Shown here: piece after piece, positions 1,164 to 62,434 of the stretch
How positions within the stretch are numbered: the stretch's first letter is position 1
How the letters are laid out: every line of letters starts with the position of its first letter
Assembly (NCBI GenBank): GCA_964016885.1
Contig: OZ024740.1
Coordinates: 166,160,001 to 166,224,000 of the forward strand
Direction of reading: 5' to 3'
From: Eledone cirrhosa
Taxonomy: Eukaryota
Length of the DNA stretch: 64,000 nucleotides
Made by a program: the position numbers and the translations under genes
The notes under the pieces: generated by a model
Seen by the model: the letters and a program-made list of their open reading frames with translations, nothing else
The model's database searches: none
Told to the model about the DNA's origin: nothing

Positions 1164-2198
1164 AGTGGTAGAACACTGGAAGGTAATATCCGTAGTGGTA
1201 GAGCACTCAGCCCAAGGGACGAGTTAGCCCATACCGAGAACAATTGTTTCACCTTCGCGGATCTTCAGCTCGGGATGTGTGTGGTTATAGGAACAGGAAG
1301 GACAACCGTACGAACGCAGGCTCTTCATACAGGCAATACTAGACTGCATGCGGGGGTATGTGTGTAAGGGAGATATCTGCGAAAGTCCGGAAAGTTTTTT
1401 TGTTGAAAATAAAATAAAAAAATAAAATTACAAAGAATCAGTCCGGAGCCTTGTAGTTATGCAATAGATGTTTGGTGACGTGTGGACAACGTGTGAAAAA
1501 TTCACTTCTCGTGTTTAGGCAATCACTATTGCGTAATCTCTTTAGGATAGTTATTCGTTCGTCAATACATAAGCCACACGTCGGATTTCCTCTTGCGTAT
1601 GGCTTGGACATAGTGATGGCTTTCCATTGAATGGAGTACCTATAGTTGAGTCTTTGAGGGACCATACGTGGCTCGCGAGTTTCGTGGACGAACGTCTGTC
1701 CGGGTATCTGAAGTTAGACTGGTGGTTCAGGAAACGCTCCTTGAATCGGCCCTCCGCCATACCCGCATAGGATTTGACCTCCTGTGGTTCGTTTGGTCGG
1801 TTGGAAGTGACCACAGCTTGATAGATTGCAGCTTGTGTGTTGCATTGTTGTTGAAGGAGGCAAGCTTCGGGCTTACCGCAAGAGGACCCTGGTGGGGTGT
1901 TGCTCCTAGGGCTGCTGGTGATGTGGGCCTTCATGCTCTTAGCGCAGGAGTATCCTAGTTTAACTTTGTGTCGGTTAAAGATGGAGCGGTATTTATGATC
2001 TATGTGGAAGTATATATCTAAGAGCGCTAGAAATTGTTTTCCTACATTGGTTTTAACGTTGAGTGTGAAGGGAGGAGAGGACCAGATAGTTTGTCTATTG
2101 ATGCGCTTACTTTTCTTAATGGTGTTGTTGCTAGTGGGAGGGTAGGTGATAGGTTGTGAGAAGCCGTTGTTAGCCAACGCCGTGTTACAGTTGGTGCT
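1164..2198 (-). mobile_element. 5'-truncated Penelope-like element (GIY-YIG end, 3'UTR, pLTR)
   Basis: ORFs 1551-2177 and 1438-1665: WSSPPFTLNVKTNVGK, IYQA..SYAGM..FKERFLNH (GIY-YIG), CGLCIDE..LNTRSE..CPH. (TA)n on both sides. Confidence 0.9.
1234..1273 (-). ncRNA. Minimal type I hammerhead ribozyme
   Basis: Minus strand CCGAG-CUGAAGA-UCC GCGAA GGU-GAAAC AAUU GUU/CUCGG. 5-bp stem I, palindromic stem III. Confidence 0.85.
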
Positions 2199-3383
2199 TA
2201 TATATATATATATATATATATATATATATATATATATATATATATATATATATATATATATATATATATATATATATATATATATATATATGGTGCTCTG
2301 GCATAGCGATGTATATATGAATGTATGTATAGTATATCTAATAATATACTCTATGTTTATTTAAAAACATTTTGAAGACCATTCGCTATGGAATGTTAAG
2401 TACTGACTGCGTCACGTACTTAGTCTTGGCAAAAGCAGAGGGGGAGTAATCGGCGGTAGTACCGTTTCTCACATGTAAGTGGTTGTCAATACTACACACC
2501 CCTTCGCTCCTGCCGAGAATTATAGAAGCTGGATCCTCATAGGATTCCAGTTATGTTTACGAGCTGATTAACACACACACACACACACACACATATATAT
2601 ATATATATATATATATATATATATATATATATATAGGTGTGTGTATATGCGTGTATATATATATTTATATATATATATATATATATAAATGTATATAACA
2701 TATATTTATATAAATTTCAAAAGGTGTTCCACCTGACTGAGATCATGCAAAATGAATTAAACAAGGTTGATGAAGACAACGGAAAAAAGGACGAAACACA
2801 GAACAGTCCGCTCTCATCAATCGACCGCTGGAGGTCGTCGTCATTTCGGTTCTGTAAAGTCGATATCATTTGCTCCAATGCACACAGGAAAGTATTAGAC
2901 ACAAAACAAAGCGATTTATCTTCCTACTATTTACAAATAAAATAGAATTTGCTATACCAATGCGATGCATCTGCAAAGAAGCGATAGAAACAAAGCCTAA
3001 CATATTAGCCAAGAAGAGAAAATATGTATGTGTACATGTACGTACGTATGTATGTATGTACGTATTTACATATGTATGTATATATGTTTGTATGTATGTT
3101 TACAACAGCAGTTTTATCTGTACAACAGCATTTAAATTTACTAAAATTATGACTATTAATAATAGGTTTTAGCCTTTTAAACATTATTTTATACCTTTGC
3201 GGAATAGAAAACAACAAAAGACAATCATTCCTACTTGATTATACAACCGTAATGTATTAGAGACATCGATGGATAATTTTAGAAAATCTAAACGACTATT
3301 CTTAAAAAATATCATCTTTAATTGAAAAGGAAATTCTTGAAGCACAGTAACGATTTTTAATTAAAATGTTTATATATTATATT

Positions 3384-3490
3384 TACAGGGTGTCCCCAAA
3401 AATGTATACACATTTTTATTAGAATGCAGATGTTTATATATATGTATATATATATGTGTGTGTACAGGGTATCCCAAAAATATGCATTCT
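3384..3490 (+). mobile_element. Two Tc1/mariner-like TIR fragments
   Basis: TA-CAGGGTGTCCCCAAAAATG at 3384 and TA-CAGGGTATCCCAAAAAT at 3462. No partner TIR seen. Confidence 0.3.
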
Positions 3491-3639
3491 AATAAACAGC
3501 ATTCTAATAAAAACGTGTATACAAACAAATACAACAACGACAAAAATAACGCTGCTCCAGTCTTTTCACAAAGACACAATTACAACAACAACAACAAAAG
3601 AGGGAACTGCAACCCTATCCAATGGTGTAACCACAAATC

Positions 3640-59047: not shown

Positions 59048-59098
59048 GTTCCCAAAGAAAAATAGTTTTCGTTACGAAAACTATTTTTCTTTGGGAAC
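59048..59098. repeat. Perfect palindrome, 25-bp arms
   Basis: GTTCCCAAAGAAAAATAGTTTTCGT-T-ACGAAAACTATTTTTCTTTGGGAAC. Confidence 0.92.
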
Positions 59099-60426
59099 AA
59101 CACTACCCATATGTCTATAGAGTATATGGTATTTGTTTTCATTATACCACATTTTTGTTTAATGCAGTGTTAGGGTTACTGCCAATTATATATATATATA
59201 TATATATATATACACAGAGAGAGAGAAATGGAATATGAAAAAGAACGTAACGCCACAGATATTCTCATACGTATGTATACATGCGCATGTGATTAAATGT
59301 GCACATACATATGTAAGTACTTATACAGATTCACGAAGAACAGCATGATACAACCACATATATGAAATATTGATAGCGATTGTTTTTCTTCTTCTTCTTC
59401 TTCTTCTTCTTCTTCTTCTTCTTCTTCTTCTTCTTCTTCTTCTTCGCCCATTTATTCCGGACATTGTCGTCGGGGAAGCGTCCTTGAACACTCCTATTGC
59501 AGTTTCAGTTTCAATTACCTTATTCGCGCCTTTTACCAAACTGGTACTTTATCAAACCCGCGAATACTAGGCTTTTTTTTTAGAGCGGCCTTACTTTCCT
59601 CTTCGTACGTCACTGGATTGTGAGAGTTTTCTTGGGAGATAAAGGTGTCACCCATTACTTCATCTCCCCTAGTAGTTTACAGCTGTTGGTACGGGATTGC
59701 TTATTCTTCCGGCAGTTGGGCACTTATATTGCAACTAGCCATCACATTTGGTAGTCGCATCGCTATCTGCTACCTACAGCATGTTCTCTAGCATAACAGC
59801 TCTGCCGAGATTATTTCATGTTTCCAAGTCTACGTAGATATTGTTTTTGTAAAATCATTGTGATTGCAAAATTCAACTGATAACTTGATGTGAAGCCTGA
59901 TATTTAATAAATGATATCTAATGTAAATAAGACTGATATTAATAAGTGATGTTTAATGTTTATATAAAGAGAGTAAACAAGAAAAGACGGTTCTACATAT
60001 TGGCTTTCGAGGCGTTCATGCTCGTTATAAATAGACTTGATAATTACTTTCATACAAATCATAGCCAGTGATAAATGTTCTCTTGCTTATTGATTCGTTT
60101 CGAAACCCAATGCACTGATTTTGTTGCTTTGTTCCTGTCATTGTTTACACTTACACACACTCGAACACACACACACACAAACACACACACACACATACAC
60201 ACATACATACACACACATACACACACCCATACTAACACACACACACACACACACACACACACACACACACACACACACACACACACACACACACACACAC
60301 ACATCCACACACACACAAACATCCACACAAACACACACATATACACACAACGTAAGCCTGTATTCATATGTGTGTGTGTGTATATATATATATATATATA
60401 TATATATATATATATATATATATATA

Positions 60427-60854
60427 ATTGGTGTTGGATGCTTAAAGCGTCCGTTTGCGGTAGGCCGTTTGAGCACTCGATGCTCTCACAGAGCAGAGTA
60501 TGATATCACAGAAAAAAAGAGAATCAGTGTTGCGACGAATGGAATTTATTGGACATATTACAATCGTTTATCTGGAGACCAGCTCGAGGCACGATCGATG
60601 TGGTGTTCGAATCTGACTCTGACTCAGATACGTCTTGATTCTACGAAGCAGATTTTCCTAATGTCCTTATACATCGATATCCTTCGCTGACAGGCGATGT
60701 AAAAGGACATTAGGAAAATCTGCTTCGTAGAATCAATACGTATCTGAGGACCTTGCGATTTTGAGAGTCAGGTTCGATCATCACATCGATCGTGCCTCGA
60801 GCTGGTCCAATAAACTCCGTTCGTCGCAACTCTGATTCTGTGTTTTTCTGTGAT
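60427..60854. mobile_element. Inverted pLTR element, family C
   Basis: About 60504-60677 pairs with 60695-60854. Tail 60427-60500. CUGAGGA core in the plus arm, whose GAAA/GUA half is deleted. Confidence 0.85.
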
Positions 60855-62434
60855 ATATATATATATATATATATATATGGAAAGTTATATTTAAATTGTT
60901 GGGTTACAGCTAGTAAATATTTATAACTGATATAAAAGCACTCAACAAGTATTTGGAGTATATTTACGATATTAAATAAATGGAAACTATATTTATAAAA
61001 CCATATTTATTTCATTATATATATTTCAGGGATATCATATTAACAATATGTTATGCCTTCCTCAGACAAAATAACATATAGACAGTTTTATAGATAAATA
61101 GATTTGACATACCGTTCAACATCGACTTGTATTTGAAAAAGTTGATTTGGCAGTGAAAAATTGTAAACAGAAAGAAAGAAAGAGAGAAAGAAGGAAAGAA
61201 AGAAAAGAAAGAAAGAAAACGAAGAAAAAGAAGAAAAAGAAGAAATGCATGCAACAAAATAGAGAGATGGAAAGATAGATAAAGAGAAGAACTTCATGTA
61301 AAGAAACAGAGAGAGATATAGATAGAGATATATATAGAGAGAGGAAATAGATAGAGATAGATATATATAGAGAAAAGTAGGTAGTTGGACATCCGTTGAA
61401 TAAACGTATCAATGATACATTTATTTATTTATTTATTTATTTATTTAGCTCTAGTATTAATGTAAGGGAGATATATGTGGTTAGGAGAGAAACCAGCTGT
61501 TATATAGAGAGAAAAATGAAAAGTAACCAGACATAGGCGAGGCATAAAAACCCTATGTTTTAATTTAGAAGTATTAGTATGTATAAAAACCAGGCACTAT
61601 AATGTAAATATCAGTATTCCTGAATGAGACACGTATCCATAATGTGTGAAAAGTAATGATCTTATGTTTAATTTTTAAAATGCATATGTTTATATGATAA
61701 CTACAAACATCGATGTGAATTTACGTGATCAACTCTGCAAACCCCTATTTCACACGGAGAACATTCTCATTGTGCTATAAAAATTTAAGTATACATATAT
61801 GTGTATATATATACACATATATATAGAGTCTATATTCATTTTAACAATACTATTCTTGTCTTTACTCTACATGATTATCTATCAAGCAGAAATAGAGAAC
61901 AGATTTCAATATATTAATAAAAAATATCAGAAACAAAAACAAAAAATAATAATAATAATAATAATAATAATAATAATAATAATAATAATAAATAATAATA
62001 AAATAGAAAACTAAAAAATATTACAAAAAAAATATTACATATTAAAAATAAAAATATTAGAAAATACTACAATAATAAAAATAAACCACAAAGATCAACC
62101 CTTCAAAATTAATTGACAATATATTGCCAAGTTCATTATAAGCATCAGAGTCGAAAACAGATGAAGCTAAAAATTATTTATCAAATCGCGTCTAGCAAAA
62201 ATCATTTCAAAAAGTTTAGGATGCCCATTTGGTCTACATGTGTTCTTATATTTAATATAGAAGTTTATCTAGTGTAACGTTTATTCGAAATATTTGGAGC
62301 ATCAACTTTTAGGGTAGTTTAATTTTTCATGAAGAATGTTTAAATAAAAATAAAAATAAAAAGAAGAATAAAAAGAAGAAATCGAAAGATTTATCGGCTA
62401 GTTTCCCAAATAATTATAAATCAAACTAAATATA

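Follow-up and report, generated by a model that had tools for sequence, protein, structure and literature searches.

Penelope-like elements (PLEs) leave insertions with two different 3′ ends, and how they choose their RNA and why these two ends arise are open questions; only one PLE has been reconstituted. A 64,000-nucleotide stretch of the Eledone cirrhosa genome (assembly GCA_964016885.1, contig OZ024740.1, positions 166,160,001 to 166,224,000, forward strand; hereafter the window) contains many short insertions whose tails carry one small hairpin. A first-pass annotation had described this hairpin as a signal shared by unrelated families bearing hammerhead ribozymes, and had suggested that it is a cis-acting RNA signal for the PLE reverse transcriptase. 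What is the hairpin, which elements carry it, and what might it do? Our analysis indicates that it is a real, apparently undescribed, clade-wide cis element of the Hydra clade of PLEs; it belongs to a known kind, the retroelement RNA hairpins, but sits in an unusual place. What is new here is that it opens the tail at a near-constant distance from the short 3′ end.

A bulged hairpin with a changing stem

We collected 241 distinct copies from loci of this genome and from the window, and sorted them into 32 tail groups (numbered from F00). The hairpin has the consensus RCTC-[variable stem-loop]-T(N)-GAGY-RCT, broader than first stated; the original ACTC...GAGTGCT form holds as one version of it, not as a strict rule. 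The nine main sites had been given with the right letters, coordinates and strands, except that the inner 5′ arm at 16052, written as TACT, is actually TATT. Among the weaker sites, 30505 looks by eye to be a decayed copy, and 46834 is real with its 5′ arm about 12 nt further upstream (copies of the family read ACTC/ATTC-TGT). The site at 44306-44326 was rejected: it has no bulge and no covariance-model match, and belongs to a tandem hammerhead family with a motif-free tail.

Seven exact matches to ACTC-N9-40-GAGTGCT were found in the window, compared with a mean of 0.63 (maximum 3) in 60 block shuffles that kept the microsatellites. Nine of 19 relaxed matches had a TA run no more than 70 nt away together with a stem of at least 3 bp and a bulge of 1-2 nt; the same combination occurred in the shuffles with a mean of 0.12 (maximum 1). 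A covariance model built from 14 family representatives picked up 11 sites in the window, of which 10 had E<0.01 and three were new; it hit 1202 only at E=1.4 and missed 14644, 30505 and 46834 at E<=3. No Rfam model matched the window at its gathering score among the best 150 of 290 rows, which were mostly microsatellite matches to miRNA models.

In the whole 3.0-Gb assembly, the pattern with a gap of 13-16 and GAGTRCT gave 27,981 forward and 29,467 reverse matches, mostly of one family, against 73 and 61 for a reversed-pattern control. With a gap of 9-16, GAGTGCT and a different end anchor, the counts were 9,628 and 9,449 against 35 and 30. A gap of 18-40 yielded 13,014 and 13,442 against 334 and 339, many of these being the same big family matched through an upstream ACTC. 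The first pattern used gave 11,082 forward matches against 732 in the control, its reverse count being inflated by TA offsets. An unselected sample of 800 kb, taken as 10-kb stretches at 80 evenly spaced places on the four largest contigs, contained 79 bare-pattern sites, 37 with an inner stem and 46 lying 25-80 nt before a TA run. Stem and TA run came together at 34 sites, compared with 0.1 in shuffles and 0 in the reversed sequence, so that the positional enrichment over shuffled controls proposed as a check was borne out. Expressed by position, 34 of the 37 stemmed matches sit 25-80 nt before a TA run, against a background of 35/471. With the stem as outcome, 34 of the 46 pre-TA matches, picked without using the stem, had an inner stem of at least 3 bp and a gap of at most 25, compared with 1.1 stemmed among 36.2 in shuffles. 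The density in the sampled stretches is about 1 per 24 kb, which extrapolates from these four contigs to a copy number of the order of 100,000. A metagenome scan for the ACTC..GAGTGCT form only returned at least 112 loci, none with a PLE protein match; 11 of 115 had a stem of at least 3 bp, and we read them as noise. No related loci were found in the viral contigs searched. Among sequencing runs, none of RNA was listed as containing the element, which tells little either way.

Pairing was scored in 21 groups, leaving aside two with long loops and nine weak ones of one or two copies. The basal pair is AU in 16 groups, GC in four and mismatched in one; the next three, CG, UA and CG in 21/21, were fixed by the search pattern. 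The first inner pair is UA in 12 groups, CG in six, GC in two and UG in one. Overall, 78 of 84 inner-pair cells pair, compared with 44 on average and at most 58 in shuffles, and the bulge starts with U in all 21 representatives. In an alignment of 14 rows, four of seven pairs differ on both sides, and the covariation score was reached by 0 of 500 shuffles; the count of changed pairs was reached by 244 of 500. (Free MAFFT alignments had put the 5′ arm wrongly, and five of 19 rows were removed.) These results uphold the earlier claim that the inner stem changes while keeping its pairing. Across the genome, the GC basal form GCTC..GAGC matched 4,930 times against 49 in the control, and the mismatched ACTC..GAGC (A.C) form 567 times against 35; small families with this mismatch recur, which suggests that the basal pair is dispensable in some lineages. 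The flanks could not be aligned among 15 groups: of the 105 pairwise comparisons on each side, one reached p<=0.01 for the tail and one for the upstream sequence. The families are not alignable throughout.

Two further properties of the tails were observed. A C often comes next after GAGY-RCT, and the resulting 8-mer is palindromic or nearly so (GAG-YR-CTC in 9/21 groups), and GAGTGCTC and GAGCACTC are mutual reverse complements; RNA dimerisation or a DNA site is possible. A second, sequence-variable hairpin often ends, by eye, about 8-15 nt before the long end (56715-56768, 60879-60936). It is visible in many tails and weak (0 to -23 kcal/mol), and we do not claim it as a signal.

The short 3′ end and the elements that carry the hairpin

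An inverted arm is a frequent feature of PLE insertions, and one of their ends may be extended by a 'tail' (PMC8557442). Here the tails are about 70-130 nt long and almost always extend only one end of two-armed insertions, as in the definition of the PLE tail; a TA-like spacer directly precedes the hairpin, which opens the tail. The inverted arm ends a few nucleotides before the hairpin: over a search range of about -30 to +38, the offset was 5-9 nt in 66 of 88 two-armed copies. By group, it is 8 nt in F00 and F13, 7 in F01, F05, F10, F12 and F23, 6 in F07 and F09, and 5 in F02. The distance from hairpin to long end is constant within a family and ranges from about 33 to 79 nt between families. 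The fixed reference point for the hairpin is the short 3′ end; the first-pass annotation had placed the hairpin by the hammerhead and the terminal (TA)n. Two-armed copies selected by their long end paired it with a short end in 81 cases and with another long end in one; classification of 68 copies gave 57 long-short, one long-long and no short-short, with 10 unclassified. In the family of the element at 23437, selected by protein, there were 24 long ends, 13 short and one other. In 11 of 12 groups the first two letters of the commonest spacer are TA or AT (background 0.21), as expected if a (TA)n primer anneals there.

Besides two Neptune-like remnants, the window contains two remnants of Hydra-clade PLEs, at 1165-2198 and 23437-27098. 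In the latter, the open reading frame (ORF) at 25652-26329(-) contains RWK and ADKT (DKG changed to DKT). A C-terminal endonuclease (EN), a CxCX5C linker and CxxC/CxH around E and N were found in the window ORFs and at loci L007, L020, L079, L096, L302, L430 and L432. The clade label rests on these motifs, the absence of CCHH being judged by eye. A Hydra-type ORF lies upstream of nine motif groups; contiguity was read directly for F00, F02, F05, F07, F09 and F10, while F01, F03 and F13 were linked by a same-strand match within 1.6 kb. Since all nine groups tied to a contiguous or nearby ORF belong to the Hydra clade, the families are not unrelated, and the motif is homologous by descent within one clade and kept by selection. 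No upstream ORF was seen in the loci examined for F04, F06, F08, F11, F12, F14, F16-F21, F23 and F24, some of which resemble ORF-linked groups. In a search that began at the protein, the motif came before the first TA run in 25 of the 59 Hydra 3′ regions, representing 5 of the 18 clusters. Most motif copies look like heavily 5′-truncated insertions. That non-coding passengers use the signal, as first suggested, is unproven: the short copies of the nine groups belong to ORF-bearing families and have this truncated look.

A strict hammerhead descriptor matched in 7 of 23 groups, the matches of F00 and F23 lying 136-192 nt away, where they may be those of neighbours. By pattern or eye, cores were recognised in F07, F05, F10 and F13, most copies being truncated, and the best 150 of the 290 Rfam rows for the window included no hammerhead. 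The hammerhead placed upstream of the hairpin by the first-pass annotation is present at 1202 and 60937; at 56687 the recognisable core sits in the inverted arm. Two side observations concern this ribozyme. At 23437-23560(-) the hammerhead region looks collapsed, with almost no stem II, in nearly all of about 29 copies, and the strict descriptor matched 0 of 22 copies of this family, although they are about 95% alike in protein. In F10 and F13, hammerhead-like cores appear by eye to have very long stem II insertions (L403, L430, L432; 46950-47030, 60600-60850). The motif is not itself a hammerhead stem III, as the upstream GAA and the cleavage triplet are missing. A Helitron 3′ hairpin was also rejected: the 3′ terminus of Helitrons is defined by CTRR, the ends here lack it, and the carriers encode PLE proteins.

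Six published Hydra consensi in the supplement of PMC8557442 were read by eye; three are clear, one is degenerate and two are uninformative. The coral Hydra-2_Amil and the sea-cucumber Hydra-2_Ajap end in GCTC-stem-T(N)-GAGC-ACT after a TA-like spacer, and Hydra-1_Ajap begins with the motif, which recurs some 50 nt later, both copies lying in the 5′ UTR. Hydra-1_Amil ends about 30 nt past the hammerhead without a clear motif, and Hydra-1_Obim is ambiguous. Horizontal transfer could shorten the age that this distribution implies. In the same supplement, none of 10 GAGTGCT places in Naiad/Chlamys consensi looked by eye like the tail motif, nor, outside the Hydra file, did the GAGTACT (8 of 12 places) and GAGCACT places. 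As a separate observation, hammerhead stem III of Hydra-2_Amil, Hydra-1_Ajap and Hydra-2_Ajap is ACTC-N-GAGT, the same four pairs as the base of the tail hairpin, and the two could exchange partners there; the stem III sequences differ in the families of this genome.

Neptune-like PLEs, labelled by an EN/linker pattern seen by eye and by Pfam GIY-YIG, had the motif in 0 of 43 3′ regions (0/33 and 0/10). Downstream of a Neptune-like EN, at distances of up to 1.6 kb, there are six motif copies; for the one at 34666 TA runs intervene. At L162:150-800 an inverted Neptune-like arm is followed by an F18 hairpin without an intervening TA run, and this may be a chimera.

Table 1. Hairpins, insertions and elements in the window
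Feature	Position	Strand	Remarks
Tail hairpin, F07	1202..1224	-	1-nt U bulge; long 3′ end 37 nt on, at 1165
Hammerhead-like core upstream of 1202 hairpin	1247..1268	-	pattern match, putative cleavage
5′-truncated, frameshifted Hydra-clade ORF end	1430..2198 (start approximate)	-	linker and GIY-YIG-type EN, CxxC..E..N..CxH; contiguous with 1202 hairpin
Decayed tail hairpin (GAGG), F24	14644..14666	+	inverted arm near 14470 stops 4-8 nt upstream, by eye
Two-armed F00 insertion between TA runs	16007..16243	-	long end 16007, hairpin 16052-16078, short end of inverted arm 16243
Two-armed F10 insertion	16308..16571	+	hairpin 16499-16526
Two-armed F00 insertion	20295..20453	-	hairpin 20340-20366, overlooked at first
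Near-complete Hydra-clade PLE	23437..27098	-	RWK, DKT; broken ORF ~23960-26329; short end 23437; 5′ pseudo-long terminal repeat (pLTR) and tail; inverted long-ended arm ends at 27098
Long-loop hairpin variant ACTC-N44-GAGTCAC	26420..26474	-	in tail, which is also 5′ UTR; 5 nt past short-end position; overlooked at first
Inverted copy of 26420 hairpin	26976..27030	+	overlooked at first
F00 insertion	28834..28970	-	hairpin 28879-28905, overlooked at first
Decayed hairpin, F01-like (60937 family)	30505..30527	-	assigned by eye
Tail hairpin, F14	34666..34695	-	overlooked at first; model match
Second Neptune-like family	35420-37340; 52880-53355	-; +	own long and short ends, without motif
Two-armed F13 insertion	46792..47199	-	long-loop hairpin ~46834-46886, 5′ arm decayed, 8 nt past short-end position
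Tail hairpin, F06	47854..47881	-	in short insertion ~47794-48095 abutting, yet separate from, Neptune-like element
Near-complete broken Neptune-like PLE	48100-52621	+	long and short 3′ ends ~70 nt apart; purine-rich tail without RCTC motif
Two-armed F00 insertion	56279..56475	+	hairpin 56404-56430
Two-armed F05 insertion	56491..56768	+	hairpin 56687-56714; hammerhead core in inverted arm 56555-56601(-)
Two-armed F10 insertion	60427..60852	-	hairpin 60472-60499, 7 nt past short-end position
Tail hairpin, F01	60937..60959	-	hammerhead-like core 61024-61065(-) upstream; long end 60879

Three other parts of the window were noted. An F05 insertion at 47300-47717 has both outer ends in common with 56491-56768; an internal deletion took out its hairpin and retained the long end. 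A retrozyme-like family of tandem and inverted hammerhead repeats without the tail motif occupies 16654-17500 and 43950-44700 (cores at 17047, 17290, 44021 and 44501). A broken long interspersed nuclear element (LINE) with AP endonuclease and reverse transcriptase (RT) lies at 3871-6641(+) (Pfam RVT_1, E 2e-22).

How the hairpin might act

For the anole Poseidon element PAc, both target strands are cut and reverse transcription starts at two internal sites bounding the tail; RNA is required out to +172, beyond the mapped start at +111-118 (PMC11167929). Both ends are known as RT initiation sites from work in vitro on PAc only (PMC11167929). In Hydra elements, the hairpin probably folds in the element RNA and acts as a handle by which the RT-endonuclease protein sets where reverse transcription begins internally. 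The best reading is still, as first proposed, that it acts in cis when PLEs are mobilised. Here we infer both the binding of protein and the fold in RNA. Read in the same way as those of PAc, the Hydra ends would place the hairpin immediately 3′ of the short start, uncopied, at a distance conserved across families; the simplest account is a bound protein that measures off the primer-annealing site. The endonuclease would nick a (TA)n target on each strand. Of the two 3′ OH groups, one would prime at the far end of the tail, so that the hairpin is copied and the long end results; the other would anneal by 2-4 nt to UA just 5′ of the hairpin, giving the short end with the hairpin uncopied. Bound protein would keep this second primer in register, and the two cDNAs would be joined head to head. 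The contacts may be the invariant CUC/GAG pairs, the bulged U and the 3′ RCU, with the variable inner stem as scaffold.

Several observations weigh against this account. The hairpin is weak, with a mean core of -5.3 kcal/mol and basal pairs at P>0.5 in only 12 of 22 contexts. Those of F03, F04 and F20 fold as unbulged helices, that of F11 folds in a shifted register, and F02 and F13 have long loops with only one to three inner pairs. A few small families seem to have an A.C basal pair (C1:42242600, C1:322815751, C1:302602714), and the copepod Hydra-1_Crog copy, near the 3′ end, is degenerate: its central A is replaced and its bulge is not a U (supplement of PMC8557442). The groups are related (23 fall into 17 components), so that the pairing cells are not independent events, and the representatives for inner-pair scoring were partly picked for their stem. 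F00 supplies 29 of the 32 offsets of 8 nt. For 13 of 18 Hydra EN clusters no motif could be traced, microsatellites or insertions intervening, and Neptune-like elements make two ends without the hairpin. G.U and A.C counts are small (7 vs 3 inner pairs, 2 vs 1 recurrent haplotypes); a genome-wide G.U test was confounded, its 3,603 matches being dominated by the inner GCTC of F10, and was discarded.

Folding, moreover, is strand-neutral, the sense strand being lower in 10 and the antisense in 9 of 22 contexts. This also suits a signal in DNA: the hairpin might fold in the first, long-start cDNA, or be read by the GIY-YIG endonuclease as a split palindrome in duplex, with the short end fixed through cutting or second-strand priming. 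The self-complementary 3′ half is in keeping with such a site, recognition of plasmid DNA by the D. virilis endonuclease depended on the tail sequence (as relayed in PMC11167929), and antisense templates have been argued for some PLEs (PMC3846280). A spacer of about 11 to more than 40 nt with covarying inner stems nevertheless fits a duplex site poorly, the excess of G.U over A.C on the sense strand points weakly the other way, and the TA/AT spacer start suits primer annealing; we regard a DNA-level signal as unlikely. Control of expression or RNA processing, by a translational operator, a promoter element or an end-protecting fold, would make the nearness to the short end a by-product. The tail is the 5′ UTR of the next unit, both in the complete element of the window, where 26420-26474 lies about 100 nt before the ORF, and in Hydra-1_Ajap with its two copies, and PLE promoters lie in the pLTR region (PMC8557442). 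It is the short end, however, to which the distance is narrow (66/88); the distance to the hammerhead spans about 8-62 nt in the few families for which it was scored, and that to the long end differs between families. This explanation too seems improbable.

If a stable stem of whatever sequence served, where the tail begins, as a physical road-block or RT pause, it would place the second priming without specific recognition, and inner stems free in sequence and length would be expected, as observed. CUC/GAG, the bulged U and the unpaired 3′ CU are nevertheless near invariant across groups and phyla despite the weak stem; such fixed letters speak against a block, which would not need them, and make it very unlikely. 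Neutral common descent or chance, the motif being a leftover word in related families, accords with the single clade of all ORF-linked groups. Yet the neighbouring sequence no longer aligns, the pairs change in concert, and elements of a coral and a sea cucumber still carry the motif. Enrichment, covariation and unalignable flanks thus largely refute this explanation, and we give it hardly any weight.

Relation to known systems

The carriers share with the Hydra clade of PMC8557442 RWK, DKT, the CxCX5C linker, CxxC/CxH and (TA)n targets; a pLTR hammerhead, which that clade also has, was recognised in some of the groups here. The main text of that paper does not describe a tail motif (no match to 'stem-loop', five to 'tail'), yet its own consensi contain it. 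We found no earlier description of the motif in the literature searched, which included work on PLE tails and hammerheads and lay outside Repbase notes and subscription journals; the text available for PMC4209133 has no match to 'stem-loop', 'hairpin' or 'Hydra'. Non-LTR retrozymes are likewise short, hammerhead-bearing, pLTR-derived repeats tied to PLEs (PMC4209133; bioRxiv 10.64898/2026.07.22.740005); they form tandem arrays, whereas most motif copies here are truncated insertions that are either single or inverted. The motif may serve as a marker to find and delimit Hydra elements, which are mostly short and unclassified.

The closest functional parallel differs in form. The stem-loop of the PAc tail is AC-rich and contains the start, and the tail is 30-40 nt long, compared with about 70-130 nt here; the Hydra hairpin is sequence-conserved and bulged, lies 5-9 nt downstream of the short end, and is common to families and phyla (PMC11167929). 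As a compact covarying signal with natural compensatory variants, it makes the choice of start by a PLE directly testable.

A likeness to the arginine sandwich of HIV TAR and 7SK is offered as a lead only. There, a bulged U is followed by G-C, A-U and G-C (U23, G26, A27-U38, G28-C37; PMC6189040). By alignment, a bulged pyrimidine followed by G-C and A-U is found in 21 groups, with bulge-less or shifted folds in four, and is not in the copepod consensus. The likeness amounts to only four or five letters, the loop lies on the other side relative to the TAR match, and the copepod copy, the families with a TA bulge and the alternative folds weaken it. In about nine Hydra protein sequences compared by eye, a patch rich in R and K precedes the IW(F/Y)NPP linker motif, and a homolog search returned two proteins; one Neptune row also has a basic patch near the same place. 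It is conceivable, though doubtful, that the Hydra clade has kept in four phyla a TAR-like arginine-sandwich hairpin, gripped through the arginine-rich linker of its telomerase-related RT, that positions the primer site 5-9 nt upstream. If so, it would be a transposon counterpart of the telomerase template-positioning element and the first sequence-defined double-start signal of a PLE.

The 3′-tail stem-loops of stringent LINEs lie upstream of the RT start and are copied, whereas the Hydra hairpin would sit beyond one of the starts and be missing from the cDNA made there, and its RT is of a telomerase-related class. Stringent LINEs and their partner short interspersed nuclear elements need a small conserved 3′ RNA hairpin for mobilisation of the RNA by the element's own protein, as in UnaL2 and zebrafish L2 (PMC1636434, PMC4176376). 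The RTs of PLEs are the sister group of telomerase, and an RNA element that positions the template would bear on the origin of internal templating.

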